A stretch of DNA of 21,610 nt from Candidatus Micrarchaeota archaeon (GCA_964388265.1 CAYLXZ010000007.1:8241-29850); one strand, 5' to 3'; positions 1 to 20,300 are shown, numbered from the stretch's first letter. The notes: a model not told the origin generated them from the letters alone. Translations and numbers: made by a program.

Positions 1-6
1 AGCTGG

Positions 7-38
7 GTTTAAATAGTTTAAGTCTCTGCAAGAATTAA
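7..38. repeat. 32-bp direct repeat copy 1 (copy 2 at 2643-2674); contains a minus-strand TATA-like box
   Basis: gtttaaatagtttaagtctctgcaagaattaa vs gtttaaatagtttaattctctgcaagaattaa, 31/32 identical. Confidence 0.9.
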
Positions 39-41
39 GCA

Positions 42-54
42 AGCCTTGGCCGGG
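42..54 (-). repeat. Duplicated 3' end of tRNA-Thr (att/target-site-duplication-like), 13 bp
   Basis: agccttggccggg is identical to 4807-4819 (discriminator + acceptor 3' strand + T-stem 3' strand). Confidence 0.85.
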
Positions 55-90
55 CTTTTACATTAAATGTAAAGATAGGGGGGTCTCTGT

Positions 91-390
91 TTATTTCTTT
101 TTTCTTCTGTTGAATTTTTTGTAGATGTTTTTTCTATGTCCTACTGCTTCTATTTTTATGATTTTTTCTTCGTAGTTAAGTATTGCTATTACTCGATAGT
201 CTCCTGATCTGAGTTTATGGTCGTCGTATTCTTGTAGTCTTTCAAAGTATACTTTGGGGTTTTCTCGCGCTTCTTCTAGTTTCTTAAGTATCTTTTGGGC
301 TTTTTCTGATTCGAGTTTGTACAGGTCTTTCTCAGCTTTTTCTGTGTATTTAAGTTTCCAGGGCTCTTCCTCTAGGTCGATGTCTTCCAT
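91..390 (-). CDS. RelE/ParE-family type II toxin
   Basis: 99 aa, basic; WKLKYTEKAEKDL...KLRSGDYRVI...VGHRKNIYK is the typical RelE pattern; lies downstream of a small antitoxin-like gene. Confidence 0.9.
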   Translation of the reverse strand: MEDIDLEEEPWKLKYTEKAEKDLYKLESEKAQKILKKLEEARENPKVYFERLQEYDDHKLRSGDYRVIAILNYEEKIIKIEAVGHRKNIYKKFNRRKKK

Positions 391-411
391 TATTCCACTT
401 TCCCTGGTTTT

Positions 412-663
412 CTATTGGTTTGGTTCTCCTATTCTTTTCTTCACTTTGCTGTGGCTGGTTAGGTTTCCTTTCTTTATATCTAGTCTTGCTTTTAGCAGCC
501 CTATTCTGAATTCATCTGTGTATTCTCCTTCTTCATCTCCTTCAGGTATTAGTTTAAGCATTTGTTTTATTACGTCATCGTAGCTTTCTTTAGATGTTTC
601 CTTAAGCGAGGCTAAGGTCTCTTTTGTCTCAGGGCGTACTTGGACGGTTGTGTATTCGGTCAT
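412..663 (-). CDS. Putative antitoxin (RHH-like N-terminus) of the RelE toxin
   Basis: TTVQVRPETKETLASLK...ESYDDVIKQML N-terminus and acidic C-terminus; ATG at 663 has a GGTGAG RBS (ORF track starts at 675). Confidence 0.8.
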   Translation of the reverse strand: MTEYTTVQVRPETKETLASLKETSKESYDDVIKQMLKLIPEGDEEGEYTDEFRIGLLKARLDIKKGNLTSHSKVKKRIGEPNQ

Positions 664-703
664 GTATCTCACCATCTTTCTTTTCTACCTAGCCCCATAA
701 AAA

Positions 704-733
704 CCTATGGGTAATCTATAGGTTATCTATAGG
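704..733. promoter_or_regulatory. Putative operator of the antitoxin-relE operon
   Basis: ctatgg/ctatag/ctatag at 705, 716 and 727 (11-bp period), next to a minus-strand TTTTTAT box at about 697-703. Confidence 0.55.
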
Positions 734-756
734 ATCTGTTTTTTTACAAGTAGAAA

Positions 757-812
757 GATGTTGATAGTCAACAAACAAAAGGTTTAAGAGCCATGATGTT
801 GATAATCAACAA
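757..812 (+). promoter_or_regulatory. HEPN-MNT promoter with two palindromic operators flanking the TATA box
   Basis: TGTTGA-tag-TCAACA (759-773) and TGTTGA-taa-TCAACA (797-811) bracket caaaaggTTTAAG (776-788). Confidence 0.7.
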
Positions 813-824
813 TAGGTTTCGAAA

Positions 825-1184
825 ATGGGAAAACTCAAAAACCTAAAAGAAGGATACAAAGAACACCTGGAAAGTGCAAAGATCCTAGAAGACCAAGGTA
901 ACTACAAATCAGCAGTTGAACTCTACTTCAAGGCAATGACATCCTTAACTGACCACATAATCAAAAAAGAAACTAATCGAACTCCAAAAAACCATTCAGA
1001 AAGATTCAGAATAACTGAGAACAAATTCCCAGAGATATACAAGATACTAGATTCTGTTTTCAGCACCTACAGAAAAGCCTACACCCAAAAAAGAGGTGAA
1101 AAACATGTTAGAAAAATTAAAAAAGGAATACAAAGAATCATCAGAACTCAAGGAAATGAAGAAAAATTTAAAACCCCTAATTAA
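825..1184 (+). CDS. HEPN domain protein (putative toxin)
   Basis: Helical 119 aa; HLESAKILEDQGNYKSAVELYFKA start and RTPKNH..RF motif; overlaps a nucleotidyltransferase gene. Confidence 0.75.
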   Translation: MGKLKNLKEGYKEHLESAKILEDQGNYKSAVELYFKAMTSLTDHIIKKETNRTPKNHSERFRITENKFPEIYKILDSVFSTYRKAYTQKRGEKHVRKIKKGIQRIIRTQGNEEKFKTPN

Positions 1185-1680
1185 AGGGGAAATAGTAGAT
1201 CTAATATTCTTCGGGTCATCCACCAAAGGAAAATACAGACCAAGAGACCTAGACCTAGCTATAATAACAAAAGACCCAAAAGGAATAGATATGGACAAAC
1301 TAACCGAGATAAGAAACAAAATCCACGGAAAAACAGAAGAAATAGACACAGAAGTAATTCCAATACAGGAACTATACACAACAGAGTTTGGATTCAACAT
1401 CCTTACAGAAGGATACAGCATAAGAGAGGAAAAACCCATAAATGAACTGATAGGGGTAGAACCCTACAATATCTACTCTTACTCCCTTGAAAACCTCAAT
1501 AAATCCAAGAAAACAACCTTCAATCGCTCTCTAAAAAGAATACTCAAGGAAGAAGAAGGAGAAAAGATAGGAAGAGGTGTTATAAGAATACCTAAGAGAA
1601 AATCAGGAGAAATAGAAGACTTCCTAAAAAACTGGGGAGTATGGGAAAACACCAGAAAATTCAAAACCATCAACTACTAA
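1156..1680 (+). CDS. Minimal nucleotidyltransferase (MNT, Pol-beta superfamily) with an extra C-terminal domain
   Basis: FFGSSTKG...RDLDLAII is the GS-x-DxD signature; likely ATG at 1156 (ORF track starts at 1096). Confidence 0.85.
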   Translation: MKKNLKPLIKGEIVDLIFFGSSTKGKYRPRDLDLAIITKDPKGIDMDKLTEIRNKIHGKTEEIDTEVIPIQELYTTEFGFNILTEGYSIREEKPINELIGVEPYNIYSYSLENLNKSKKTTFNRSLKRILKEEEGEKIGRGVIRIPKRKSGEIEDFLKNWGVWENTRKFKTINY

Positions 1681-1747
1681 CCACGTACGGATAAATCAGC
1701 TGAAAGCAAGACTATTCCATCCTCTTTCTCTATAAACTTTAGTTGAG

Positions 1748-1762
1748 AGCCTTGGCCGGGAG
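1748..1762 (-). repeat. Duplicated 3' end of tRNA-Thr, 15 bp
   Basis: agccttggccgggag is identical to 4807-4821. Confidence 0.9.
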
Positions 1763-1809
1763 CACAAATAAACTACAGAATAGTTACACCACATATAAAA
1801 AAGAGGTAA

Positions 1810-2064
1810 TTACCGGGAGCGAGTGCTATGGTGGTTGCTGGGTAGGAGAATTTTCTTTAAGATTTTGAATAGTGTTGTTAGACCTAATCCTATTAATAAA
1901 ACCATAGTGATATGGTAGGGTGAATATATACTACTTCGGAAGAATAGACTACCTGTGATTCCAGTTTTAAGTACTAATATGATTGCTATTGCGAAGGCTA
2001 TAGTGGCTGGTAAAGATTCTAAAATTGAGTTGGTTAATTTATTCTTCTTTATCCTCACTTTCAT
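1810..2064 (-). CDS. Small hypothetical membrane protein (2 TM)
   Basis: 84 aa, two hydrophobic segments; upstream GTGAT RBS-like site and TTTTATA box. Confidence 0.6.
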   Translation of the reverse strand: MKVRIKKNKLTNSILESLPATIAFAIAIILVLKTGITGSLFFRSSIYSPYHITMVLLIGLGLTTLFKILKKILLPSNHHSTRSR

Positions 2065-2138
2065 CTAATCACTATTTAGTATAAGGAGTTATAGATATAA
2101 AAGTCTCACATTCAGAAAAGTAGGGCGCAAACCTCTAT

Positions 2139-2612
2139 TTAACAGTACTTGTGTGGAGGCGTGAATTGACTGCCCCCTATACCTAAAGTTACTTCAAATT
2201 CGTCATGACTTCCGTAGTTGCATCTGAGGGTAAACGGAAGTTTCTTATTTTCTTCATTCATCGTACCTGTCGCAATAACATCACTGTCTATTGCACATGC
2301 AGAATTTACTGAGGTTTGTTTATAACAGTAAAGGACGACTCCTCCATTTGCTTCGTAATCATAGGGACCAATATAGTTAACTACACCTTCACATTTTATA
2401 CTACTCCCAGTATCTTTACAGTCATAGGAAGAAAAGGATAGATAAGACGTAAGTTTTTCCGAAAATTCGGTATTAACTGTATAATCTACTGAACTCTTTT
2501 CCTCTCCACCGCCTATACCCTCTACTCCGAAGGAACTATACATGAATACAAATGCCAGTACTAATACAGTTATCAGTACTAACACAACTGCAATAAGTTT
2601 ATCATTCTCCAT
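2139..2612 (-). CDS. Membrane-anchored or secreted Cys-containing hypothetical protein
   Basis: N-terminal hydrophobic helix, beta-rich ectodomain with 6 Cys; TATA box lies in the 2643-2674 repeat. Confidence 0.75.
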   Translation of the reverse strand: MENDKLIAVVLVLITVLVLAFVFMYSSFGVEGIGGGEEKSSVDYTVNTEFSEKLTSYLSFSSYDCKDTGSSIKCEGVVNYIGPYDYEANGGVVLYCYKQTSVNSACAIDSDVIATGTMNEENKKLPFTLRCNYGSHDEFEVTLGIGGSQFTPPHKYC

Positions 2613-2642
2613 ATTTCATCACGTTTATGTAAATAGAACTGT

Positions 2643-2674
2643 GTTTAAATAGTTTAATTCTCTGCAAGAATTAA
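2643..2674. repeat. 32-bp direct repeat copy 2; likely promoter of 2139-2612
   Basis: 31/32 identity to 7-38; minus strand reads ...AAACTATTTAAAC; overlaps the stop codon of the upstream gene. Confidence 0.9.
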
Positions 2675-2937
2675 TCACACTGTCTCTTTTTTTCTAACCA
2701 ATTTGCTATGTCCTCGCCGAAACTAAGGGTGACTAAGACTAATACAAGCACGAGAAAAGCAGTTGTTATCGCATATAGGGGTAGGAAGGCGTTTGATTCT
2801 TTTTCTACAAGTTTATATACTGAGATGGCTGCTGTTCCAGCTATAATACTTACAAAGAAATCGTATATAATCCTATGCCTATCTCTAACCTTAGCCATCC
2901 TTTTCCTGGCTTCTTCAGCCCAAGTACCTTTTCTCAT
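2671..2937 (-). CDS. Small hypothetical membrane protein (2 TM)
   Basis: 88 aa, basic N-terminus followed by two hydrophobic segments. Confidence 0.65.
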   Translation of the reverse strand: MRKGTWAEEARKRMAKVRDRHRIIYDFFVSIIAGTAAISVYKLVEKESNAFLPLYAITTAFLVLVLVLVTLSFGEDIANWLEKKRQCD

Positions 2938-2996
2938 AAGAGAACACTTACATTTTCTGTTTTTTCAGTCAATCTAATCTCTTTCCTATAATTTCA

Positions 2997-3500
2997 TTAC
3001 GTTGACAGGAAGATTAGTATTCCTGTTATTACTGCTAAGATTATTCCTATTATTGCTGCTTTTTTTATCTTGGATTTTTTACTTCTTGTTTTTCCTTTGC
3101 TTTCTGTTATTGTTGTTTCTTTTGTTTCTGAAAGTGCTTTATCGAATGCCTTATCTCTTTCTTCTTCTTTTTTCTTTTGTTCTTCTCTCCATTTTTTTCC
3201 AAATGGTATGCATGGGTGTCCTCCTTTTATTGATAGGGTTTGTTCAGGGTGTTTTCTTTTAAATGTAAGAGTTGCAGGTGGTTTTGGAACTAAGTGTTCT
3301 TCGCAGAAGTATTCACTACAGTGTTGGCATCTGTAAACTTTTCCTTCTTTATCGCACATGTGGTAGTGGCATTTCTCTTCTTTTTTCTTTGGTTCTTTCT
3401 TCTCTTTATCTGTCTCTTTTTCACTGTGCACTTGGGATTTGTGTATCTTCATTCCTCTCTCGGTATCGAATTCCTTGCCACACACCGGGCATTGAGCCAT
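2997..3500 (-). CDS. C2H2 + AN1-like zinc-finger protein with C-terminal membrane anchor
   Basis: CPVC...HKSQVH; CHYHMC...CQHCSEYFCEEH...HPC; terminal hydrophobic helix; ATG at 3500 with GAGGT RBS. Confidence 0.8.
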   Translation of the reverse strand: MAQCPVCGKEFDTERGMKIHKSQVHSEKETDKEKKEPKKKEEKCHYHMCDKEGKVYRCQHCSEYFCEEHLVPKPPATLTFKRKHPEQTLSIKGGHPCIPFGKKWREEQKKKEEERDKAFDKALSETKETTITESKGKTRSKKSKIKKAAIIGIILAVITGILIFLST

Positions 3501-3510
3501 TTGTTTTACC

Positions 3511-4080
3511 TCAGTCAAGTGCTGTTACATCAGTAACGTTCAAATAATACTTCTTCCGAGTTGAATTTGGCTTACATCTGTATTCCGTTATCTCAACTTC
3601 ATGTCCATAAGAAATTTCTTCTGGAGGCTGTTCACATTTATCAACAGGAATAACGCTCCTTAGGGGATCATAAGAATCCCAAGGGATATCTACTGTAGGA
3701 TCATGATTGGTTTCTTCTTTAATCCAGAAAGTTCTTTTCTGGCATTTACATGCATCATAGCTCTCTACAACTGCTTCTATTCTACACTGACCACAGTAAA
3801 AGTAATCATATTTTACGGGTAGAAAAATAGATTTGCCTTCTTTATTTTCTGTCATAATAGTATATTCAAAACCTGAATATGTTATATCTGTATTGGCTGT
3901 AGGATATGTTTCTATGGTTACTGTTTCGTTTACATATTCTTCTGGGTTTAGAACTACATCTTTCTTGGAAGTTCCAGCGGAAAGAGAACCTTCAACACAT
4001 CCAGTTAAGGATAAGGTTCCTGCTAATACCACTACAGCAATAAACAGTGAAACACCTTGGGATTTACTCAGTTCATCCAT
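3511..4080 (-). CDS. Putative lipoprotein, Cys-rich
   Basis: Hydrophobic signal ending in an LSLTGC lipobox; likely start 4080 or 4089 rather than 4155. Confidence 0.7.
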   Translation of the reverse strand: MDELSKSQGVSLFIAVVVLAGTLSLTGCVEGSLSAGTSKKDVVLNPEEYVNETVTIETYPTANTDITYSGFEYTIMTENKEGKSIFLPVKYDYFYCGQCRIEAVVESYDACKCQKRTFWIKEETNHDPTVDIPWDSYDPLRSVIPVDKCEQPPEEISYGHEVEITEYRCKPNSTRKKYYLNVTDVTALD

Positions 4081-4146
4081 GTTTACCATTGGTCGCTGAT
4101 GGAATAAATAATTTAAGGGGGCGGAAGATAAAGATAATGATTCTAT

Positions 4147-4572
4147 ATGAGTCAACTACATGAGGAACGTTTAAAACTACTCCAAGATATTTATAATGGT
4201 GAATACAGCGAGAGGAAAATCGAGGAGGGAGAATACAATAAAAAACGAATAAAAGGATTTAGGGATGAAGGACTAATAACAGGAGACTTAGACTCCCTAC
4301 AACTAACTCCTACAGGATACAAGTTGATTGCTTCCCATAATTCTCTAAAGGCATCTGAAGAATCTCTTGATGTTTCTGAACAATCTTTAAAGTCCAGTGA
4401 ACTATTATTAATAGCTACTTTATTCCTTCTTGTAGTATCATTAACACAAGTATTTATATTAGCCGTGAAATACAGTTCCTGGTTAGTTAGTGGGGTTTTT
4501 TTAATGGCGGCAGGGGCAGTATTAACGACCTTTCTTATCCTTCATTTCTTTGTTCCAAATATCCCGATTTAA
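4147..4572 (+). CDS. Hypothetical protein: winged-helix-like N-terminus plus 2 C-terminal TM helices
   Basis: FRDEGLI....LQLTPTG resembles a wHTH wing; two hydrophobic segments at the C-terminus. Confidence 0.6.
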   Translation: MSQLHEERLKLLQDIYNGEYSERKIEEGEYNKKRIKGFRDEGLITGDLDSLQLTPTGYKLIASHNSLKASEESLDVSEQSLKSSELLLIATLFLLVVSLTQVFILAVKYSSWLVSGVFLMAAGAVLTTFLILHFFVPNIPI

Positions 4573-4755
4573 CCTGTTTCTTCTTCGATGAACTTCCACC
4601 TATGCTCTAATCCTTCCTTGAGTAACTCTTTCTGTTCTTCTACTTCTTTAGCATCTATAAAATCCAGGTCGCTGTCTACATAAGTATCTTTCATTTCTTT
4701 AAATAGAAGTGCCCCATCACTGGTTGTTGCTTCAAGTAGTTTAGTTGGTTCAATG
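4569..4755 (-). pseudogene. Possible 5'-truncated gene remnant (or a 41-aa ORF from ATG 4694)
   Basis: Open frame IEPTKLLEATTSDGALLFKEMKDTY...EEETG* with a protein-like acidic composition, running directly out of the hairpin repeat. Confidence 0.35.
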
Positions 4756-4808
4756 TTTTTCTTTTGGTAGGCTGTAGGTTTTCTTTTTCTGGAAAAAGAA
4801 AAGTTTAG
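4756..4808 (-). repeat. About 50-bp hairpin-containing dispersed repeat, copy 1
   Basis: Minus strand ctaaacttttctttttccagaaaaagaaaacctacagcctaccaaaagaaaaa; matches 7171-7224 on the + strand. Confidence 0.9.
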
Positions 4809-4879
4809 CCTTGGCCGGGAGTTGAACCCGGGGCCTTATCCTTACCATGGATACGCTCTACCAACTGAGCTACCAAGGC
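4807..4879 (-). tRNA. tRNA-Thr(GGT)
   Basis: GCCTTGG/CCAAGGC acceptor, TATCC-ATGGTAA-GGATA anticodon arm, CCGGG-TTCAACT-CCCGG T arm, U discriminator, no CCA. Confidence 0.97.
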
Positions 4880-4888
4880 TTAGGGATT

Positions 4889-5539
4889 CTAGTACTTTGT
4901 TAGTTTTTTAAGAAGATTAGGGTCGTTCTCTTCTATGTATTTATCTACTTTGTCTTTTATTTCTTTATGTACGGATTCTATGTCTTTTTCCCCGTCTATT
5001 CTATGTAGTTCTTCTCTCTTATCGACTAAGTCCAGGTAGTTCTGTCGGATTCTCCGCATTTTCTTCTTTTTCTCGAATAACTCCGCGCTTGGCCTTTCCT
5101 CCATTCTATTCAAGCTTTCTTCCACGGATACATCCAGGTAAAAAGCTATGTCTGGGGCTGGGAACCTTTCGTTTATCTTCTCTATCCATTCTAGAGGCAG
5201 ATCTAGTTGTCCAAAAGCCATGCTGGAGTAGAAATATCTGTCAGTGACGACTATATGGTCGTTATTTAGGGCAGGAAAGATATCTTTCTCCAAGTGATGT
5301 GATCTATCAGCTGCGAACAGGAGCTGTAAACACTCTTGTGTAGAGCTCCATTCATGGGTTAACTGTCCTCTTATTAATCCACCTACCAGATTGTTGGTAG
5401 GTTCTTTTTCCTGGTTAGCTTGGAATCCTTTTTCCCTTAGATATTCGACTAGTTTATTGGCTTGAGTTGTTTGTCCTGAACCATCTGTACCTTCTATAGC
5501 GATAAATAAACCGTTTCCATCTTCTCTCATGTGTTTCAT
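4889..5539 (-). CDS. tmk: Thymidylate (dTMP) kinase
   Basis: FIAIEGTDGSGQTTQ P-loop, KEPT, LLFAADR, DRYFYSS and PDIAFYLDV motifs. Confidence 0.93.
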   Translation of the reverse strand: MKHMREDGNGLFIAIEGTDGSGQTTQANKLVEYLREKGFQANQEKEPTNNLVGGLIRGQLTHEWSSTQECLQLLFAADRSHHLEKDIFPALNNDHIVVTDRYFYSSMAFGQLDLPLEWIEKINERFPAPDIAFYLDVSVEESLNRMEERPSAELFEKKKKMRRIRQNYLDLVDKREELHRIDGEKDIESVHKEIKDKVDKYIEENDPNLLKKLTKY

Positions 5540-5620
5540 TTTTCCCGCTCCATATTACAAGTTATTTAATTGTAGTTATCCTTATATTATTAAGTTAATC
5601 GTTCACTGGGAGAGTTAAAT

Positions 5621-6694
5621 ATGAAGATCAGAAGGATTGCTTACACGGTTTTAGGTGTATTTATCTTTTTTCTAGCTATTGTTCTGCTTAAAGAGAGCAC
5701 TGGACTACTTTCATCTTTCTTTAAATCTTATCTGTCTTCCGTGAGTGACCCTGTTAGTTCTCTTGGTTTAGGATGGGTTTTGTCGTACTTGATGCTTTCC
5801 GGTTCTCCTGTAGCTGCTTTGAGTTTGGATTTCTTGTCTATTGGTGTTCTTGAACAGATACCGGTGTTCATGATGCTCGTGGGCTCAAGGCTCGGAGCTG
5901 CTTTTATCTTGATTCTAATCGGTGTGGTGGAGTACTACCGTGGCAAGAGCGATGACCTGGCTGACTCGACTTCTTTGGCTTTCTTAACTTTCATAATAAC
6001 CTACACGGTGTTTATCCCGGTTATCTTTATTGGTAGCTTCTTCCTGGGGAGAGGTCTAGGGGAGTTCCCTATTTATTCTCCAGGTTCAGTTGTCTTGGGG
6101 ATCAACAGCTTCTTTAAGATATTTACAGATAGGATAATAGCTTTCTCTGGGTCTTTCCCATCGTTCTTGCTTTCTTTCATCTTACTGTGGATTGGTTTAA
6201 GTGTTTTTGACAGGGCTTTCAAGAACCTTGATCCTCGTAGAGTTAAATCGAGCTTTATTGCTTTTGCTATGAGGCGTAAGTGGTTCTCTTTCTTCCTTGG
6301 AGCTGTGGTAACTTTGTTCGCTGCTTCTGTTTCTCTTTCTCTAGGTATACTAGTTCCTCTTTACAATAAGGGCTTCGTGGAGAGAAGGAGTTTGATTCCT
6401 TATATCATGGGTGCTAATATAACTACGTTCGCTGATACTTTCATTGTAGCTATGTTGCTGGAGAGCTCTCTGGCTTTCAACGTGGTGTTGGCTGCTGCAG
6501 TGGCTGGGTTGATAGTGACGGTTATTTATCTTCACTATTATCATTACTACTTTATGTTTCTTCAATCTTCAATTAACTATCTCTTATTCAGATCAAGGAG
6601 AATGATTGTGTTCTTTATCTTGCTCTTGGTTATTCCTTTGGTTCTGTTGTTTAATTCTCAGTTGGCTTCATTGGTTGGCTTGCTGTTCTCTTAG
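5621..6694 (+). CDS. Na+/phosphate cotransporter family membrane protein
   Basis: Polytopic with two repeats: SGSPVAA...GSRLGA and SVSLSL...PYIMGANITT. Confidence 0.8.
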   Translation: MKIRRIAYTVLGVFIFFLAIVLLKESTGLLSSFFKSYLSSVSDPVSSLGLGWVLSYLMLSGSPVAALSLDFLSIGVLEQIPVFMMLVGSRLGAAFILILIGVVEYYRGKSDDLADSTSLAFLTFIITYTVFIPVIFIGSFFLGRGLGEFPIYSPGSVVLGINSFFKIFTDRIIAFSGSFPSFLLSFILLWIGLSVFDRAFKNLDPRRVKSSFIAFAMRRKWFSFFLGAVVTLFAASVSLSLGILVPLYNKGFVERRSLIPYIMGANITTFADTFIVAMLLESSLAFNVVLAAAVAGLIVTVIYLHYYHYYFMFLQSSINYLLFRSRRMIVFFILLLVIPLVLLFNSQLASLVGLLFS

Positions 6695-7030
6695 CTGCCC
6701 TGTTATGAGTTTTCCTTTTCCTTTTGGTATCATTACTTCCTCTGTTTCTCTTTCTGTCCTTATTTGAAGCACGTCGTATTTTTTCTTTGGCTCGATCTTA
6801 ACGCTGCCTATTATTGAGTAGAGGAAGTCCTGGTATCTCTCAGTTTCTTTCATCAATCTTTTCCGGCCTTTCTTCCATATTATTATTCTTCTGTTGGTTA
6901 GTATGAGGCTGTGTAGTTCTTTTCCTTTCTTGGATTTCATCTGTGTGATTATCTGGATGTTTTCTCCGGATCCAAGTGTTTCTTGGATTTCTTCGAGTGT
7001 GTCTTCGTCTACTTCTCCGATTTTTTCCAT
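6668..7030 (-). CDS. Prokaryotic PH-domain protein
   Basis: LGSGENI...LILTNRRIIIW...Y..I.SV pattern. Confidence 0.7.
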   Translation of the reverse strand: MEKIGEVDEDTLEEIQETLGSGENIQIITQMKSKKGKELHSLILTNRRIIIWKKGRKRLMKETERYQDFLYSIIGSVKIEPKKKYDVLQIRTERETEEVMIPKGKGKLITGQLREQQANQ

Positions 7031-7126
7031 GTTTGCATCTGTATACCTTAGGATTAAGTTCTTTTTAATTGTTTATTTTCTAGTTTGCTTTGGGTTTGTA
7101 TCAAAACTTTTTCTAAGTTTGGGATT

Positions 7127-7149
7127 CTAAACCTTTTCTAAAGGTTTAG
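7127..7149. repeat. Perfect 10-bp hairpin
   Basis: ctaaaccttt-tct-aaaggtttag; an imperfect related hairpin lies at about 7102-7121. Confidence 0.75.
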
Positions 7150-7150
7150 T

Positions 7151-7163
7151 TGTAGGGAAGGGG
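7151..7163 (-). repeat. Duplicated 3' end of tRNA-Leu (12/13 identity)
   Basis: tgtagggaagggg vs tgcagggaagggg at 7304-7316. Confidence 0.7.
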
Positions 7164-7170
7164 TTCTCAC

Positions 7171-7224
7171 CTAAGCTTTTCTTTTTTTAGAAAAAAGAAA
7201 ACCTACAGCCTATCAAAAGAAAAA
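7171..7224 (+). repeat. About 50-bp hairpin-containing dispersed repeat, copy 2
   Basis: ctaagcttttctttttttagaaaaaagaaaacctacagcctatcaaaagaaaaa; inverted copy of 4756-4808. Confidence 0.9.
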
Positions 7225-7270
7225 ATCTAATTGAATGTAGTGCCTAAAATAGTTATTACAAGACAAGTCC

Positions 7271-7300
7271 TTTTTTGCGAACTTTTTCGTTTAAAAAGTT
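7271..7300 (-). repeat. Hairpin + GCAAAAAA element just 3' of tRNA-Leu
   Basis: AACTTTTT-AAACG-AAAAAGTT-CGCAAAAAA; similar to 7489-7520 in the tRNA-Arg intron. Confidence 0.7.
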
Positions 7301-7303
7301 CTT

Positions 7304-7387
7304 TGCAGGGAAGGGGATTTGAACCCCTGAAGGCACTAAGCCAATGCGCCCTGAACGCATCGCGTTTGACCGCTCCGCCATCCCTGC
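7304..7387 (-). tRNA. tRNA-Leu(CAG)
   Basis: GCAGGGA/TCCCTGC acceptor, ATGCG-TTCAGGG-CGCAT anticodon arm, long variable arm, AGGGG-TTCAAAT-CCCCT T arm. Confidence 0.97.
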
Positions 7388-7417
7388 ATACCTAAGTGTG
7401 TATTAATGTTTTTATAG

Positions 7418-7561
7418 CGGGCCCGAGGGGATTTGAACCCCCGACTTGCTGGTTTCTCCAAACTTCTATTCCTTTATAGATGTTTCAGTTTTTTGCAAAT
7501 TTTTTCTCTTTGAAAAAGTTTTCCGAAGCCAGCCGCGCTGTCCGGACTGCGCTACGAGCCC
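7418..7561 (-). tRNA. tRNA-Arg(TCG) with a 69-nt intron at 37/38 (7454-7522)
   Basis: GGGCTCG/CGGGCCC acceptor, GCTGG/CCAGC anticodon stem, loop CT-TCG-G|A; canonical BHB with CTTC:GGAG helix, 3-nt bulges and AAACTT:AAGTTT outer helix. Confidence 0.95.
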
Positions 7562-7588
7562 TTTAAGTAGTATTTCCAACAGCTTTCT

Positions 7589-8704
7589 TTAAATGTTTCT
7601 GTTTCTCTTCACCGGCTGTTTTTCTCCTGTGAATTCATCTTCTTTTCTGTGGTCTCTTTTTCTCCCTTCGCTGTCTTCTCCATTCCTTTTACTTCTTTCT
7701 AAAGGTATGAATAGTTCTATTAAAGCGCAGAACGGTGATATGAATAGTGTTCCGTAGAGTAGAACAAAGGAACTTATAACTAAACCGGTGATGACAGGTA
7801 GTGCCTGGAGCATTATTCTAAGCATCGGAACCTGTTCGAACATGCTGTTTATAACGGCTTCGGATACTTTATCCTGCATCTGTTCGACTATGGTGGACTG
7901 GATGTTCGTTGCCATCCCTCCTTCTCCGTAGCTTTCTTTGAAGTTGTTATAGGAGTTGTTCATGACGTTATCCTGTTCTTCTTGGGTTAAATCGCTCCAG
8001 GTAAGGTCGTATTTTTCCTGTAGGGATTTATTGTACTCTGGAAGTATCTCTGGTTTGAATATGTTTTCCACGAACCAGTCCCTGGAGACGTTTCCCATTC
8101 CGCCTGTGCTCATGCCGGTTAGGTTCATCTGCTGGGTCTGCGCCTTAGTCACGTTCATGAGAGAGGATTTTAACTGTCCTTGTCTTTGTTGTAGATTGGC
8201 TGATGTCATTAGAAGCCCGACTAAGAAACCACCTATGCTTAGAGTGTATATAGCCTTTTTAGAGAGCCCCCAACCGTATTTGAGTCTTCTGAATTTCCCT
8301 TCTTTTTTCTCTGGGTGGCTTAGGTATGCTTGTAGGGCTACGCCCAGGGCGTAGAAGGAGATCATTAGGAAGAATACTGCCTGGTTCTTGAAGAAAGGGA
8401 ATAGAATGAGCGCAGGGATGAAGGAACCTATGATCCCTGCCATCACTATTTTAACTGAATCGAGTTCTCTGTTAAAGTAGTGTATGGTCATGAGGGCTCC
8501 TGAGAGCACGAAACCAGTTGATATTAGAAGTAGAGCTGTTTGTATGTTAAACAGTTGCATTGCTTTTCCGAGTTGGAAAGCGAAGTCAAAGGATATCCCT
8601 ATTTCTTGATATAGGTATAGCCATACGAGATTCAGTACTGTGAATATTCCTGTGGTTATTCCAAGGCATTTAGCTGAGTTTTTCTTAATCTGTAAGCACC
8701 TCAC
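7589..8704 (-). CDS. Hypothetical polytopic membrane protein with a large helical loop
   Basis: About 6 hydrophobic segments; start overlaps the end of map, so probably co-transcribed. Confidence 0.8.
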   Translation of the reverse strand: MRCLQIKKNSAKCLGITTGIFTVLNLVWLYLYQEIGISFDFAFQLGKAMQLFNIQTALLLISTGFVLSGALMTIHYFNRELDSVKIVMAGIIGSFIPALILFPFFKNQAVFFLMISFYALGVALQAYLSHPEKKEGKFRRLKYGWGLSKKAIYTLSIGGFLVGLLMTSANLQQRQGQLKSSLMNVTKAQTQQMNLTGMSTGGMGNVSRDWFVENIFKPEILPEYNKSLQEKYDLTWSDLTQEEQDNVMNNSYNNFKESYGEGGMATNIQSTIVEQMQDKVSEAVINSMFEQVPMLRIMLQALPVITGLVISSFVLLYGTLFISPFCALIELFIPLERSKRNGEDSEGRKRDHRKEDEFTGEKQPVKRNRNI

Positions 8705-14572: not shown

Positions 14573-14821
14573 TCAGTCATCATCTTTTTCTTTTAATTTG
14601 ATTGGAAGCCCTTTGAACACTTTATCCAGTATAGATAGGTCTCCTGACTTGAGTTTACCTGTGTCGGCTTCCTGGTAGATATCAAGTTCTTCAGGGTATT
14701 CACCGTGTTCGAGCGGTAGGTCGGCTATCGGATCCGGAAGTATGGGGTGCTGCTCCATCTTCTTTTTCTTCTTAGGTGGACGTGACTGTATGACCACGTG
14801 TTTAGTCTTTTTTTCACTCAT
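14573..14821 (-). CDS. Small soluble Pro-rich protein (last gene of the RHH operon)
   Basis: ATG directly abuts the upstream TAG; YPEELDI resembles the motif shared by the three upstream genes. Confidence 0.75.
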   Translation of the reverse strand: MSEKKTKHVVIQSRPPKKKKKMEQHPILPDPIADLPLEHGEYPEELDIYQEADTGKLKSGDLSILDKVFKGLPIKLKEKDDD

Positions 14822-15175
14822 CTAATCACCTTTTATCTTCTTACCAAGCCACTTAGCCGTTGGTCCAAGGGTTCCTTTCAGCGCTTTCGCTGTGTGTGAT
14901 TCTTTAGCGTCTTTATCCGGACTTACTTTCATGGTTATGTCATCGGGAATCGTATAGTCTGGTTTTCTCTTGGACTCTATCTCGATGGGATCCATTACTT
15001 GGGCTTGGGAACTGGATTTGGAGGGTTCTTTAGAGCTGTTGAAGGTTTTGGATATTCCTGTTCCTATTCCTGCGATTAGGGCGATTCCTCCGATTGCCTT
15101 TGCGAGGAATATGTATCCTCCTATGTAGAGGAAGCCTGCTACGGCGATCATTGTAAGGACGTTTCCGGTATCCAT
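14822..15175 (-). CDS. Small membrane protein, paralog family A
   Basis: N-terminal hydrophobic hairpin, Ser linker, VMDPIEI...IPDDITMKVSP, basic amphipathic tail; AGGTG RBS. Confidence 0.85.
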   Translation of the reverse strand: MDTGNVLTMIAVAGFLYIGGYIFLAKAIGGIALIAGIGTGISKTFNSSKEPSKSSSQAQVMDPIEIESKRKPDYTIPDDITMKVSPDKDAKESHTAKALKGTLGPTAKWLGKKIKGD

Positions 15176-15184
15176 TTTTCACAC

Positions 15185-15529
15185 CTATTTAAGCATCTTG
15201 AATAGGCCTTTGGCAGCTCCTTTAACCATTATTCCGGCGCTGTTCACCATGTCTCCGGCCTTCACTCTTTTCTTTTTACCGTCCGGGTAGACGCTTATTT
15301 CCCCGTCTTCTGGGTATAGGTTAGGTGGGTCTCCTGTGTCTTCGTATACTACGGGGTGGAGGACTGTTTCTTCTTCTCCGGACCCTGAATTTCTTTTGCT
15401 GGAGCTGTTTCCTGTTGAGTACATCATCAGCGCTACTGCGGCTGTTAGGCCTCCGACTATCACTATTGATTCGAGGTAGATTCCTGCGAATACCGCTGTT
15501 AGTGCTACGATAGCGGTTTCAATCTTCAT
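15185..15529 (-). CDS. Small membrane protein, paralog family A
   Basis: Same layout, VLHPVVY...YPEDGEISVYP; ATG at 15529 overlaps the upstream stop. Confidence 0.85.
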   Translation of the reverse strand: MKIETAIVALTAVFAGIYLESIVIVGGLTAAVALMMYSTGNSSSKRNSGSGEEETVLHPVVYEDTGDPPNLYPEDGEISVYPDGKKKRVKAGDMVNSAGIMVKGAAKGLFKMLK

Positions 15530-15860
15530 CCGATCCACCCCCTATCTTTTTCGTGGCTGCCCCTATGCATTTTCCTAGGTAGCCTAAGCCTTTACCTAGA
15601 TCTGCTTTTGCTCCGGTTTTGTGTGGGCTGAGGTTTATGCTCATGTCGTCTGGGTATATGGAGTCGGGGCCGTCGTACTCTCTCTTTACTTTTATGGGTT
15701 GGACCTTGACGTTGGATGAGTTGTTTGGGGAAGAGGTTTTTTCTTTGGTTAGGAGGTGGGTTAGGCCTGTGGCTATTCCTGTGAGTAGGGCTATCTGTGT
15801 GAGTCCGAGGTATAGCATGGTTAGGGCGGATGCTCCGAGTATTAGGGTGGATTTATTCAT
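15519..15860 (-). CDS. Small membrane protein, paralog family A
   Basis: Same layout, VKVQPIKV...YPDDMSINLSP; ATG at 15860 with GGAGGTGG RBS. Confidence 0.85.
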   Translation of the reverse strand: MNKSTLILGASALTMLYLGLTQIALLTGIATGLTHLLTKEKTSSPNNSSNVKVQPIKVKREYDGPDSIYPDDMSINLSPHKTGAKADLGKGLGYLGKCIGAATKKIGGGSDED

Positions 15861-15999
15861 CTGTTCCACCTCCTTTTGAGGTGAGTGTTCTTATTGCTGA
15901 TCTTACGGCTTCGGAGCGGGTTGGATATGTTCCTTCGGCTACTTCTTTGTCGAGTCTTTTTTTAAGTTCTTTGGTTAGTCTTACTTGTACGGGATCCAT
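15853..15999 (-). CDS. Ribbon-helix-helix (CopG/CdrS-like) transcriptional regulator, 48 aa, absent from the ORF track
   Basis: MDPVQVRLTKELKKRLDKEVAEGTYPTRSEAVRSAIRTLTSKGGGTDE*; GAGGAG RBS; stop overlaps the next ATG. Confidence 0.88.
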   Translation of the reverse strand: MDPVQVRLTKELKKRLDKEVAEGTYPTRSEAVRSAIRTLTSKGGGTDE

Positions 16000-16019
16000 T
16001 TTGATCTCCTCGGAAATGC

Positions 16020-16082
16020 GTAACTACTTATCTGTAGTTACACATTACTGTTGTAGTTTACCTGCACTACGCTTTATAAATA
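16020..16082 (-). promoter_or_regulatory. Promoter and palindromic operator of the RHH operon
   Basis: GTAACTAC-ttatct-GTAGTTAC (16020-16041), further TAC/GTA half-sites, and minus-strand TATTTATAAA at 16073-16082. Confidence 0.65.
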
Positions 16083-16119
16083 TTACGTTTTTGCAGGGGG
16101 GGTAACTAAAAAGAATCCC

Positions 16120-16410
16120 TTACCCTCCGAGGAGTTGAGCCATCTCTGCGGAGTAGTATTCCTGTGACTTGCGTTTCCGCCTTTCTCTAAGTAGAATTAG
16201 AACAGCGAGCAGGGCTAAGGCTACGAACCAGTACTCCTGCAGTCCGAATATTTCTAAGAAAGCTATGCTACCTACTGCTACTATGAATATAGATATGCTT
16301 CTAAGAAGTATCAGTATTAGGATTAATCCTCCTATGAATAGCCAGGTTATCCCTTGTGTGTATGCCATGAAGGATATTAATAGTAGTACGATGGCTGAGA
16401 AGGGATCCAT
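16120..16410 (-). CDS. Small, very hydrophobic membrane protein (3-4 short TM) with a basic tail
   Basis: 96 aa; starts 4 nt after the upstream stop. Confidence 0.85.
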   Translation of the reverse strand: MDPFSAIVLLLISFMAYTQGITWLFIGGLILILILLRSISIFIVAVGSIAFLEIFGLQEYWFVALALLAVLILLRERRKRKSQEYYSAEMAQLLGG

Positions 16411-16414
16411 TTTA

Positions 16415-16657
16415 TCAGTCCTCGTCGTCGCTTTCGGCCATTGCTTCTGCGAATCCTTTGAATACTGGGTATCCGAAGAAGAGTATTACTGCTATTATGA
16501 GGAGTTCGTAGTGGCTGAAGAATGTTAGGTAGGCTATTACGGCTGCGAGTATTACTCCAAGTGGCTTGTTGTCGAGTATGTCGGTGCTCCATTTGAGGAG
16601 GAATATGAATGCTATTATTGTGAATGCGAGTCTTAGGTCGCTCCATAGCGCGGACAT
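16415..16657 (-). CDS. Small membrane protein, paralog family B
   Basis: IFLLKWSTDILDNKPLGVILAAVIAYLTF; GGTGA RBS. Confidence 0.85.
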   Translation of the reverse strand: MSALWSDLRLAFTIIAFIFLLKWSTDILDNKPLGVILAAVIAYLTFFSHYELLIIAVILFFGYPVFKGFAEAMAESDDED

Positions 16658-16716
16658 TTATTCACCTTGTTTATATTTATTCACTTGTAATTTATATCCC
16701 ATGGTATTCAAGGGGG

Positions 16717-17022
16717 TTAGTCTCCTTTTATTCCGAAGATTATTATGGATGATATGAATCCGAATCCGATGCTTCCGGCTATCCAGTAGAACATGAATAG
16801 GGCTCCGATCACGTACCATAGTCTGTAGAATAGGTAGATTAGGAATCCTGCGGTTACGTATTTAATTGGCTTGCTTCTTATTCTTTTGCTGACCATGGCG
16901 TAGATTTCTATTGAGACTGCGAAGAAGAAAACCCATTTGAACTGTGGTAGGAGCTTTGCAAGGATTAGTGGAAGGGATATTATGAATCCGAATATCAGTG
17001 CTTTTAGTAGGTTCGCGTTCAT
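16717..17022 (-). CDS. Small membrane protein, probable paralog family B
   Basis: IEIYAMVSKRIRSKPIKYVTAGFLIYLF; GGGTGA RBS. Confidence 0.8.
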   Translation of the reverse strand: MNANLLKALIFGFIISLPLILAKLLPQFKWVFFFAVSIEIYAMVSKRIRSKPIKYVTAGFLIYLFYRLWYVIGALFMFYWIAGSIGFGFISSIIIFGIKGD

Positions 17023-17033
17023 GTTTGTTCACC

Positions 17034-17351
17034 CTATGCTTTCCTCGCTTTCTTCACTTTGGATTTTTTCTTTTTAGCTTCTTCTGCACCGGCTCCTCCT
17101 CCGAGTGCGAGGTCGAACATCAGGTTCAGAGGCCCGTGTGGCAGTACGACTATGAGTAGGATTATAGGTATCCATAGTCCAGCCCATCTGAACAGTAGGA
17201 GGTATGATAGTACGAGTGTAATTAATGTGACCGCGGTTGAATCTGTTATTCTTCTTCTAACCCAGTGTATTATGAAAACGAGGCACAGTAATCTCACTCC
17301 AAGTAACACCAGGTCTATTAACCCGAGGCTCGGCATCAGTGATTCCAGCAT
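17034..17351 (-). CDS. Small membrane protein, paralog family B
   Basis: VFIIHWVRRRITDSTAVTLITLVLSYLLL; Lys-rich tail. Confidence 0.85.
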   Translation of the reverse strand: MLESLMPSLGLIDLVLLGVRLLCLVFIIHWVRRRITDSTAVTLITLVLSYLLLFRWAGLWIPIILLIVVLPHGPLNLMFDLALGGGAGAEEAKKKKSKVKKARKA

Positions 17352-17398: not shown

Positions 17399-20300
17399 TT
17401 ATGACATTTCTTCAACGTCAAGCCCTTCGAATCTGTAGCCCCATCCTTCGTGGTCCGTTTTTCCACCTGTGCCTTCGGCTCCGAGTTCTGTGTCGAGTGT
17501 GTAGTGCCATTCACAGAAGTTATCCTTGTTTACGTTACAGTTTCTTCCTAGTCCAAATGCTAACCTGTGTCTGTTTTCCCCTGGGTTAACTAGGAATATA
17601 TCGTTTTCCTCTCTGTCTTTGTCCCAATCTGTGGCAGTGAAGTCGAGTTTTCGAGTTTGGCCTGGTTGTTGTTTATCATCGATTTTATTGCTTTTCTTAC
17701 TATTACATCCTGGTCCTGTGCATCTTTTCCCGTATCTTAACATGCTTTTTGTAGGGATTTCTGCTATTTTTTCCAGGTTATCTTCTTTGATGTCCAGTAC
17801 TATCCCGCTTTCTCCTCTTGCTGTTATAAATATTTCTCTATGGTCATCTGGCTTGTTGTCGAAGTCTCCTATGGTTGCTGAAGGCTCGTAGTAATGTTTA
17901 AAGTCCATGATATCGCCCGATTCAAATCCCCCATTTTGATCATCTACAAAGGATGGATTGGTGTAGAGGGATTTTATAGGGTTTGCTATGATTGAATTGC
18001 CCTTTGTTCTCACCAGGATAGCGTCATCATCTGGGTTCCTTGGATCTTCTAATAGATCCCCTATCTCGTTGACTGACCCCAGTTTTCCCGCTATCTTCGT
18101 GTTTGATGGGTTCTCTCCAACGTTCGGGCTGTGGGGAAGCCCGGTTACATTATGCTTGTGGATGTTATCTGTTGCTAGATTGTCGTTGAGCAGTACCTGG
18201 TGTAAGTCACCGTATTTACCTATTAATCCGGCGGAGGTCTTGTATTCCTTATCTAATAACCACCATTGATCTTTTCCGTCTTTTGTTTTTTCCCAGGTTT
18301 CGCATATTCTATCGTTATTGTAATCGCAGTTTTCACCGACTATGTATATTACTCTTTCTCCTCCTCCGGTTCGGTCTATGGTATTGAACATTATGAGATC
18401 GTTCTTCTTTCCATCGTTATCTCCATCGAAGAGCTTCATGAATTGTTGATTGTCATCGATGTTGTTCAGTGGCCCGTTAAACTGTTCCTTGAGATTTTTC
18501 TCTATTCGGAAGGTTTTGATCTTACAGCTTAATTTGTTGTCTATGATATCTCCGTTTTGAGTTCCCTGTGCTTCGTAGGGTAACGTGCAGTTGGAGAATA
18601 TCTTCACTTTATTCCTATGTTTTATTTTATCGGTTCCAAAACCTGCAGATTGTCTTATGGCTATTTCTCCTCCTGCTATGAATGTTCGGCCACCTCCACT
18701 TGTGTCTCCGCAGATTCTCGCTGGTGTTTTGCCTTTGTTTTGGGTTATTCTTTCTATGTATACCTCTGAATCTTCTTCTTTGTATGTTATTATGTAGTCG
18801 TTTCCGCTTACTATTCCGTCTCCTTCTACGTCTATGTCGTCGAATGACCCGTGGGTTAATCCACATAGATGATTTTCTTTGATGTGGTATATTCTGGAGA
18901 AACCGTCACTGTTCTCGATGGTTTCGTGGAGTTTTTCGCCTGTAATCTCTTCATTAACTTTATATATTGTTGCCCCTGTTCTTTTGTAATCGCCTGGTGG
19001 TTGTTCCTCATGCCATTTATTCAGCATAGTTCTTACTTCGTCTGCTGACCCGAATAGGTATAGGCCTGTTCTTGTTTTCTTTCCTATTGGTTGTTCTGGG
19101 ATTTTGAATGGGTAGCTGTTTTCGTAGGAAGTTAGGTATTTATTGAATTTTTCTTGGTAGATTCCTCCGCTCGCGCTTACTCCTGCTACTACAGCTGCTT
19201 TTCCTATTTTACCTGTTCGTTTTGTTGTGAATGCTCCAGTCTCTTCTGGTAGGCTAAGCTCTTCTATGAGGAACCCCTCAACAGAGTCTTCTATTGATCC
19301 TGAGGAGGTGTTCCAGTATATGTTAGGTGCTTTATCTGGCATTTTCAGCTTCCCATTTTCTATCATGAATAGCTTGGTAGCTGTCTTATCATCGTCTGGG
19401 TTCACGAGCCCTGTGAGGTTGCTGAGGAAGCTTTTCAGGTCTTGGTTGTCCGCGTAGTGTAGGGTAAGTGTTTCACCGCCTGTGGATAGGTAGGTTTTTT
19501 CTCCTTTATCGAGATCTCCTTCGATTTTAAAGGAAGATTCTGCTATATCATCTGCAGTCCATTCTGACTTATCTAAATCGTACTGTGCGCTGATCAGATT
19601 TTCTACATCTTCTTTGAACTCACCTGCGTTTATACCTGTTTGGAATGCTGGCAGGTTGCTTTCCTTGCTGAGCGTTAGTAGTAGTTGGAAGTTTTGTATT
19701 CCATTTGTCTTTATTTTTGTTTTTTCTGCGATTGATATGTTTATAGGGGAGTTTTCATTTGGTGAGGTGAGGGTTACATTGTATTCTCCTGCTCCGCGGG
19801 GGAACCCGTTCTTCACCACTATATCGCATTCGTCTCTGACATTATCGTCAGTACAGGTTTCTGGAATACTATTTATATCATTGAGGTAGTCTTTGAAATT
19901 GGATTTTGTAGGTTTTTGATTAACCAGCATGACTTCGCGGGTTGTTTCTCCTTCCCAGTTTTCCCCTGCTTTGAGGTAGGTTTTCAGGTTGTTGGTGAGT
20001 ATGTCTATGGTGCAGAATTGGCTGCTGCAGTCTGGGTTTGCATCGTTGTAACCGGCTATTTCAAGCGGTGCGAAGTAAGCTCCTTGGAGCTGTGATTCAT
20101 CTTTTTCTGTAACCATGAGGCTTCTGTTCCATGTTCTTTCCACGCTTATATATCTGTTGTCTTCATTTGCCTTTTCAAAGGTTCCTGTGATACCGAGAGT
20201 TAATTCAATAAAGTTGGGTATTCCCGCGGCATATGTAAGACCCACGTATCTTCCGGTTTCTCCATAACCTCCGTATGTGCCTCTTATATCTATATCCAGA

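Follow-up and report, generated by a model that had tools for sequence, protein, structure and literature searches.

The 3' ends of two tRNA genes of a Candidatus Micrarchaeota archaeon recur behind the genes themselves, enclosing a series of small units that lack a recombinase. Arrays of this type are found in at least ten of 31 genomes of the class, relatives have empty sites at the corresponding tRNA-Thr gene, and in some a tyrosine integrase lies beside Thr cores. Judged from the sequences, these arrays probably grew by tandem accretion of the CIME type at att cores, driven by a zinc-ribbon tyrosine integrase of only intermittent occurrence.

Duplicated tRNA 3' ends and the units between them

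The window analysed is a 21,610 nt stretch of a fragmented, 82% complete metagenome-assembled genome (G000). Bare numbers below are window positions; C7 is the contig containing the window, and C5, C8, C11 and C12 are other contigs of G000. The features concerned are as follows.

3-41, minus strand: arm following a core (P'-like), the start of unit C, which runs left to C7:7329
42-54, minus: exact copy of the tRNA-Thr(GGT) 3' 13-mer, an att-like core
55-90, minus: palindromic 'type-2' unit end, closing with TGTAAAAG before the core
91-390, minus: ParE/RelE-family toxin gene, unit B (Pfam PF05016, E 7e-10)
412-675, minus: putative antitoxin gene adjoining the toxin, unit B (weak DUF7557/VAPB_antitox match, below cut-off)
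825-1184, plus: probable HEPN-type partner, unit B, so read because of its size and pairing with the nucleotidyltransferase; a HEPN profile search gave no match
1096-1680, plus: minimal nucleotidyltransferase (MNT), unit B (PF18765 and PF01909 above cut-off, MntA below)
1748-1762, minus: tRNA-Thr(GGT) 3' core, exact at 1748-1760, with 15 bp identity to the tRNA
1763-1802, minus: 'type-1' unit end, 89% identical over 54 bp, including the core, to C7:7329-7382
1810-4572, unstranded: unit A cargo, six ORFs of 84-214 aa, with no Pfam match above cut-off
2639-2677, minus: coreless second copy of the 3-41 arm (92% over 39 bp), probably an eroded internal boundary
4569-4760, minus: start-less gene tail of 64 codons
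4756-4802, unstranded: REP-like hairpin repeat directly behind tRNA-Thr, with an inverted copy at 7178-7224
4806-4880, minus: tRNA-Thr(GGT), target gene, core at 4807-4819
4889-5539, minus: thymidylate kinase gene, a conserved host neighbour
5621-7030, unstranded: Na/Pi-cotransporter-like and bPH-like genes
7151-7163, minus: copy of the tRNA-Leu(CAG) 3' end with one mismatch
7164-7303, minus: non-coding hairpin unit behind tRNA-Leu, 140 bp (fold z -2.8)
7303-7388, minus: tRNA-Leu(CAG), target gene, core at 7304-7316

The Thr 13-mer, CCCGGCCAAGGCT, comprises five nucleotides of the T-stem strand, seven of the acceptor strand and the discriminator. This is the register that the first-pass annotation had proposed, along with the positions of the two Thr copies and the Leu copy and enclosed segments of about 3.0 kb, 1.7 kb and 140 bp. 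All of these were borne out: the 13-mer is exact at both Thr positions, the Leu copy matches at 12 of 13 positions, and the Thr units A and B and the Leu unit measure 3046 bp, 1693 bp and 140 bp. The array had also been suspected of continuing past the left edge of the window, and it does: a third exact Thr copy at C7:7329, 912 bp to the left, closes a further integrase-less unit (C, 940 bp), which contains a 10-N scaffold gap and encodes a 268 aa beta-helix protein.

Copies of tRNA 3' ends are far more frequent in G000 than shuffling predicts, a check that the same annotation had recommended. The 27 distinct tRNA 13-mers have five exact non-tRNA copies in the whole genome, against a mean of 0.08 and a maximum of two in 300 rounds with shuffled 13-mers; when up to one mismatch is allowed, there are 20 such copies against 3.6, and the occurrence of a copy at this level within 200 bp downstream of any of the 29 tRNAs has a p value of about 0.0005. 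Copying is selective, 17 of the 27 cores having no copy at all. A Leu-like 13-mer at C12:18584 lies inside a long ORF and is probably a chance match. The 13-mers were also considered as 3' exons of split tRNAs, but the orphan cores have no 5' halves ahead of them, and this reading was abandoned.

The Thr units of G000 carry toxin-antitoxin pairs and small secreted-type proteins, several unit A ORFs having signal-peptide-like or membrane segments as read from the sequence. The start-less tail at 4569-4760 indicates a deletion at the front of unit A. The type-2 end is joined to three different cores in this genome; it also lies ahead of Thr-type cores at C5:8717 and C11:5035. A ParE module with one left edge, composed of T-loop and core, occupies different host sites in G000 and G004, at 84% identity.

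Relatives differ from G000 in gene content here: the end of pheT and the tRNA-Thr core are 17-28 bp apart in G001, G002 and G004, which carry the empty site, and 6166 bp apart in G000. The hairpin unit behind tRNA-Leu(CAG) has no counterpart in these three genomes, and the genes at 5621-7030 are absent from the matching place; no Leu core closing the latter segment was seen. An attempt to map the crossover from the ligase empty site failed because the relatives are too diverged. Contigs of sequencing run X1, possibly the source sample, give depth in all 30 bins of window positions 1-7700, and one of 1156 bp includes the third core along with its type-1 end. Runs X3-X6, of which X5 and X6 are the same data, match small shares of the window only and were given no weight for habitat or strain.

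Arrays across the class and a rarely present tyrosine integrase

The genomes were searched with Thr-, Leu- and Ser-type 13-mer patterns. Many matches proved to be genuine tRNAs or chance occurrences in coding sequence; in each of G010, G014, G026 and G029 the paired repeats belong to separate tRNA genes, and a candidate on contig C55 of G007 has no tRNA. The longest array, in G023, consists of a tRNA-Thr(CGT) gene followed by 14 copies, eight of them exact, over 28 kb, with units of 153-5314 bp. Overall, 22 of 37 core copies are exact, and ten of the 17 mismatches fall at positions 1-4, adjoining the element arm, several of them recurrently. An AGAG/GGAGC motif follows 13 of 31 Thr cores, at +16 in 11. 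Unit ends are of a few recurring arm types, combined differently; many units consist of one gene or one toxin-antitoxin pair between tight arms, and orphan cores are found behind housekeeping genes. One copy in G008 has the base of another isoacceptor, its unit being 91% identical, and in that genome one micro-unit is found at two tRNAs. G018 likewise has one micro-unit at two Leu tRNAs, where each core copy matches the local tRNA; this matching, together with the joining of the type-2 end to three cores in G000, makes duplication of the target a simpler explanation than a core borne by the element.

Beyond G000, its arm patterns had no match in viral or metagenome contigs, and six viral 18-mer matches did not extend to a longer arm match. 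Of two genome matches, L062 and L063, the latter falls in coding sequence; nothing informative was found outside G000 except, in G023, an end resembling type 2 that precedes a degenerate core.

An intact tyrosine integrase gene (389 aa, zinc-ribbon) is present once in G023, at positions 78360-79529 of that genome's own contig C12, starting about 75 bp past a Thr core, with the catalytic R, HxxR, W and Y all intact in alignment. As decay of integrase genes predicts, short stubs of this gene's 5' end occur too: a second unit of G023 contains one, and in G022 one follows an orphan Thr core at a distance of about 60 bp. Among 32 metagenome relatives of the integrase, 27 of which were inspected, tRNA-Thr(GGT) has an exact 13 bp copy 7.8 kb away beside the integrase at L144, tRNA-Pro has an exact 13 bp copy 4 kb away at L158, and a tRNA-Thr gene directly precedes the integrase at L141. 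E169 and W280 are invariant in all five aligned integrases. The best matches of the G005 integrase in a phage collection were GacPV1 (38% identity), ThalV2 (35%) and BJ1/Humcor1 (30-32%); a separate viral search found no relative. No integrase homologue was found in seven of the ten array genomes, and PF00589 had no match at all in G018 (98% complete) or G019 (96%); the PF00589 and PF07508 matches of G002 were set aside, this genome containing foreign-looking contigs.

That the units carry no recombinase, as first noted, holds for all three Thr units and the Leu unit, and the wider search then advised for tyrosine, serine, Cas1 and HUH-type enzymes gave no match to PF00589, Cas1, resolvase or Y1 transposase in the 82% complete G000 assembly. 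Local integrase profiles, applied to peptides from 15 aa upwards, detected no integrase or stub there, and no recombinase family was found in the 27 profiled ORFs of the window, a 1403 aa ORF at 17399-21610 lying outside that scan. PF07508 gave one sub-threshold match in G000, at C8:16996, overlapping a TFIIE-alpha ORF. Three TnpB-like genes lie elsewhere in the genome, with no link to the arrays.

With neither an integrase nor a stub found in G000, the enzyme proposed for its window has to be taken from relatives. On this model the tRNA end would be restored at every integration and earlier units displaced further from the gene; loss of the integrase gene with retention of both arms would then turn units into CIMEs, which could be moved or reshuffled upon the return of an integrase-bearing element. 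Toxin-antitoxin cargo would favour retention of a unit, hairpin units of 64-258 bp would be the minimal case of arms without cargo, and orphan cores behind housekeeping genes may reflect secondary-site insertion or relocated pieces of arrays. We infer the activity of the enzyme, its crossover point, the mobility of integrase-less units and the enzyme acting at tRNA-Leu.

Alternative explanations

The arrays could instead be a dedicated integron-like system. Its cassettes would ordinarily move without an integrase gene of their own, being captured and reshuffled at tRNA 3' ends, perhaps via folded single-stranded circles, and would not in the main be the result of decay. The single integrase for 14 units in G023, the many tightly bounded units of one gene or pair, the recurrence of one micro-unit at two tRNAs in both G008 and G018, and the strong folding of micro-units (z < -3.5 in eight of the ten folded) would all suit such a system, as would brine contigs with other joints at cores (30 to 4756, 54 to 754 and 732 back to 41). 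However, these joints all stem from a single data set that was filed twice and have 80-85% likeness over sides of 28-47 letters, a kind of match that often derives from other organisms or repeats; moreover, the integrase lies inside a unit and not at a fixed platform, the stubs indicate decay, and the integron-integrase profile TIGR02249 scores 46.8 bits against a cut-off of 265. Cores fold back on their own units beyond shuffled expectation in three of 37 copies and none of 24 at Thr, and general fold-back was rejected. We regard this reading as distinctly unlikely, and more improbable again is a casposase or other staggered-cut transposase that inserts at the T-arm boundary and duplicates a 13-15 bp target each time. 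The exactness of 22 copies and their usual agreement with the local isoacceptor, even where unit or arm is common to several, fit such an enzyme, and casposons can form tandem arrays at tRNA ends (PMC5137440). Yet none of 40 units has terminal inverted repeats (at most two matched terminal bases, and five of 15), so casposons are disfavoured; Cas1 was not found in nine of the ten array genomes, and in the tenth, G008, it is a CRISPR cas1 beside a 15-repeat array. Y1 transposase and PF07508 occur only in array-free genomes (one and three of 31), the published A. boonei casposon duplication overlaps its tRNA by just 5 bp, and recurrent variants at core positions 1 and 2 are unexpected of fresh duplication. 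These results speak against the casposase suggested in the first-pass annotation; its broader idea of an enzyme acting in trans from outside the units is retained in accretion by integrase, the evidence pointing to a tyrosine enzyme. Its proposal that a single enzyme serves tRNA-Thr and tRNA-Leu alike stays conjectural, the integrase having turned up next to Thr cores and none beside a Leu micro-unit array.

It is possible, if on balance unlikely, that the tRNA-Leu hairpin units stand apart and owe nothing to the integrase, being either local tRNA-end duplications from the invasion of tRNA genes by REP-like hairpin DNA, which also appears in introns, or a conserved RNA feature. The 140 bp Leu unit has a hairpin in common with tRNA introns of the family (E 1.5e-7); six of 18 micro-units match the 76 introns, with no match in 20 shuffle rounds; the genome has 17 occurrences of one 15-mer from the G000 unit; several micro-units have a G-run that reads like the 5' T-stem strand; and no integrase was found beside the Leu arrays. 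Against this, Thr arrays too contain micro-units, of 124-258 bp, which are placed between gene-bearing units and have arms in common with them, the register is identical, and the Leu unit is not conserved, since G001, G002 and G004 have no unit behind tRNA-Leu(CAG). This alternative bears on the Leu units alone and does not conflict with tandem accretion by the integrase at Thr. Assembly artefact or chance repetition is hardly credible: the scaffold gap immediately adjoins the window on its left and the assembly is fragmented, but the chance test, the X1 contigs and arrays of like kind in independent genomes all argue otherwise.

Known systems and significance

The principle of island building seen here is already known. 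CIMEs of the ICESt1/ICESt3 model of tandem accretion (PMC5704250) similarly lack integration and transfer genes, keep both att ends and form stacks next to a target gene's 3' end, some of which include an integrase-bearing element. In G000, three Thr units and one Leu unit are flanked by two att-like cores without such genes, stacked at the target gene end, with empty sites in relatives; a cognate integrase is found at the Thr site in G023, G022 (as a stub) and L144, and was not found in G000 or for Leu. Unlike the described CIMEs, these units occur in small-genome archaea, in arrays of up to 14 and down to a pure hairpin of 64 bp, and have no conjugation genes that we could see.

Short 3'-end att sites and integrase loss have been described in archaea (PMC8371274). 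SNJ2-type haloarchaeal pleolipoviruses likewise use a very short, stem-loop-free core at a tRNA 3' end with the integrase near att (PMC5861418, PMC8371274); the 14 bp SNJ2 core (PMC5861418) is close in size to the exact 13 bp cores at L144, L158 and in G023. However, SNJ2-type enzymes have Gly/Ala at Glu/Asp-I and Ala/Val at His/Trp-III, whereas the class integrase retains the Glu and Trp and has a C-terminal zinc ribbon, and in these loci the core comes ahead of the start of the gene and not after its end. The enzyme of GacPV1, a Geoglobus pleomorphic virus, aligns with it and has the same catalytic residues and zinc ribbon, but GacPV1, ThalV2 and the Halorubrum BJ1/Humcor1 are whole viruses, and the accessible text of PMC10919331 gives no account of arrays of integrase-less units for them. 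Casposons resemble the arrays in their short direct repeats, tRNA targets and tandem arrangement (PMC5137440, PMC6563490), and differ in their terminal inverted repeats, Cas1-solo and register. Integrons, including archaeal ones (10.1101/2022.02.06.479319), also combine one integrase with many small cassettes, many of them toxin-antitoxin pairs, but here the repeat is a tRNA end and not attC, the enzyme is not IntI, and there is no fixed platform. In contrast to SSV-type split integrases, the G023 gene is whole and starts after the core, and the G000 cores have no integrase fragments. No account of such arrays was found in the literature searched, which lay largely outside subscription journals; this register may already appear in the supplementary att tables of PMC5861418 and PMC6563490. 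Two features set the arrays apart: units consisting of hairpins alone, some of which have a hairpin in common with tRNA introns, and orphan cores behind housekeeping genes.

The arrays show archaea of 0.6-1.3 Mb, many without a detectable tyrosine recombinase, gaining toxin-antitoxin, defence-type and surface genes in steps of one or two genes. They also provide a candidate enzyme and, in G023, a natural 14-unit substrate for asking whether 13 bp of a tRNA end with no stem-loop are enough for an att core, as has been asked of SNJ2 (PMC8371274). Where archaeal intron sequence originates is a question on which the hairpin-only units, overlapping as they do with tRNA introns, could shed light. 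More speculatively, and with fairly low probability, this class of small-genome archaea may possess a tRNA-anchored cassette system, in which a rare viral-type integrase picks up and reorders integrase-less cassettes together with 64-258 bp micro-cassettes made of hairpins alone at the 3' ends of tRNA-Thr and tRNA-Leu, with switching between isoacceptors, new docking sites behind housekeeping genes and trade of hairpins with tRNA introns. If so, it would amount to an attC-free counterpart of the integron and give archaeal tRNA intron sequence an origin that can be traced.

Stacked units behind tRNA genes in the source genome

The three tRNA-end repeats reported in the first-pass annotation, two of tRNA-Thr and one of tRNA-Leu, were all recovered, and the suspicion that the array continues to the left of the window was correct: the window covers 8241-29850 of contig C7, and at 7329 the 13-mer core of tRNA-Thr(GGT) is found exactly once more, as its third copy. 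The order is tRNA, 3046 bp (unit A), core, 1693 bp (unit B), core, 940 bp (unit C), core, a stretch of about 450 bp containing a small SHOCT gene, and pheT; G+C content is 35-36% in the array, against about 37-48% elsewhere in the window. Across the source genome, G000 (726 kb, 45 contigs, 82% complete), tRNA 13-mers have five exact non-tRNA copies, compared with 0.08 for shuffled 13-mers.

Three relatives, G001, G002 and G004, have 17-28 bp between the end of pheT and the core, and some 70-110 bp between tRNA-Leu and tmk; since this spacing leaves both sites empty, the Thr and Leu regions are insertions in G000. Only the pheT side is visible in G003, and the G005 contig stops 36 bp past the tRNA. 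The unit contents and recurring ends in G000 are as follows.

Unit A: six unannotated ORFs, a gene tail without a start and an arm copy that lacks a core
Unit B: a ParE/RelE pair and a probable HEPN-MNT pair
Unit C: a beta-helix protein
Type 1 unit end: C7:9988 and C7:7329
Type 2 unit end: C7:8282, C5:8717 (core behind tRNA-Thr(CGT), closing a 1289-bp unit) and C11:5035
Orphan tRNA ends: C1:37524, C1:52506, C11:4442, C32:5581 and 6657 (Ser type) and C4:17494

The orphan ends have a T-loop-like lead-in and the upstream tRNA is absent; several are directly 3' of host-gene stop codons, and most adjoin ParE or HEPN-MNT modules. The C11 ParE module is also found in G004 at another host site, with 84% identity and an identical left edge, and G004 has an AbiE pair enclosed by two Thr-like ends.

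Other repeats are present in G000. A 15-mer with a GTAG core, here termed REP-like, occurs at 17 places including window 7235-7249, adjoining A/T-rich hairpins and often near tRNAs; a search of G000 for an associated Y1 transposase found none. The low-GC contig C29, encoding AbiEi-like and GmrSD/AlbA genes, has three copies of a 15-21-bp repeat (391, 1854 and 5619), and is probably another accretion site. A 32-bp gene tail is duplicated at C10:711 and 2249, 1538 bp apart; direct repeats resembling IS200/IS605 ends are found at C10:21453 and 23601 (46 bp) and C14:6480 and 8342 (24 bp), and there are three TnpB-like genes, on C1, C3 and C4.

The window genes, which include PolB, a methionine aminopeptidase family member and intron-bearing tRNAs, together with the small genomes across most of the class, suggest a DPANN-type archaeon. 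One such tRNA (window 7417-7561, reverse strand), with a hairpin-rich intron, was called SeC by ARAGORN, its G004 orthologue being called Arg(TCG). A run of around ten short membrane-type ORFs, nearly devoid of Pfam matches, at 14573-17351 is kept in G001.

Distribution of arrays and hairpin micro-units

Pattern searches of the 31 class genomes, or parts of them (15 genomes for some patterns), followed by inspection, revealed tRNA-linked core copies in at least ten of the 31, among the matches listed. Thr arrays are found in G000, G018, G023, G024 and G028, Leu arrays in G000, G006, G008, G012, G015, G018 and G019, and orphan cores in G004, G020 and G022. The G023 array has 14 copies spanning 28 kb, with cargo including an AbiE pair, an AAA_14/DUF4143 ATPase, peptidases and a nuclease-fold protein; the G018 cargo includes ParE, HEPN-MNT, AbiE and PemK modules. 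ARAGORN missed a tRNA-Thr(GGT) with an apparent short T-loop insertion in G029 (L185:6950).

The Leu units, 64-177 bp long, are without exception non-coding and strongly folding. Ten of the 18 micro-units (nine Leu, one Thr) were folded, giving z scores of -1.9 to -6.4, and six of the 18 match tRNA introns of class genomes, with no matches in 20 rounds of shuffling. Behind the Leu micro-units of G008 (C4:57100-62250; L237:1115-6246) are a 593-aa ORF, a 15-repeat CRISPR array, cas1 and two ORFs whose lengths suit cas2/cas4; this may be a compact type V system.

A candidate integrase and the origin of the units

The first-pass annotation supposed an enzyme acting in trans; tyrosine recombinase, serine recombinase, Cas1 and Y1 transposase were sought throughout the 82% complete G000 assembly, and none was detectable. 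Within the G023 array, a single tyrosine integrase gene is intact; its 389-aa product has a zinc ribbon at the C terminus, and the gene starts around 75 bp past a core. Stubs of it occur in G022, behind an orphan Thr core, and in a second unit of the G023 array. A full-length homologue is present in each of G005, G007, G023 and G025, the G024 one runs into a contig end and the G008 one is broken; none was found in seven of the ten array genomes. Recombinase matches in G002 are unreliable, as several of its contigs (L040, L042, L043, L097, L098) look foreign. Metagenome relatives adjoin tRNA 3' ends, with exact 13-bp copies in the G000 register at L144 (tRNA-Thr) and L158 (tRNA-Pro); within one family the core is upstream of the integrase gene in either orientation (L141, L138 and L158 versus L144, L139 and L044). 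Among named proteins, the closest are the GacPV1 (38%) and BJ1 (30%) integrases, both from archaeal viruses, and the ESM Atlas contains clusters of archaeal phage integrases, some of them with a zinc ribbon.

The observations are best fitted by att recombination with later loss of the integrase, corresponding to CIME-type accretion as described in PMC5704250; tandem integration and integrase loss in archaea are noted in PMC8371274. A casposase, the alternative builder raised at first pass, is disfavoured: terminal inverted repeats occur in 0 of 40 units, Cas1 in one of ten array genomes, there beside a CRISPR array, and the published casposon register (PMC5137440, PMC6563490) differs from the G000-type 13-mer. 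A general attC-like fold-back was rejected, being found in only 3 of 37 copies.

Under recombination by an integrase, the core might be borne by the element, as suggested by mismatches between copy and tRNA that recur and cluster by arm (10 of 17 at positions 1-4, adjoining the element arm) and by one G008 copy with the base of another isoacceptor; against this, shared units and arms often bear the core of the local isoacceptor. Mismatch-tolerant overlap, resolved toward the host tRNA, could yield both outcomes. Joints in brine contigs skip or reorder units, one being compatible with a ParE-module circle; all of them belong to a single data set and have short sides, and they are only a hint of unit rearrangement.

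The principle of island building is already known; a literature search, without most subscription journals, found no paper on arrays of this kind in DPANN archaea. What is added is their spread through one class, a candidate enzyme within a 14-unit array, the occurrence of arrays in near-complete genomes where a tyrosine recombinase was not found, and the presence in the same arrays of gene units and micro-units, with overlap between the latter and tRNA introns.
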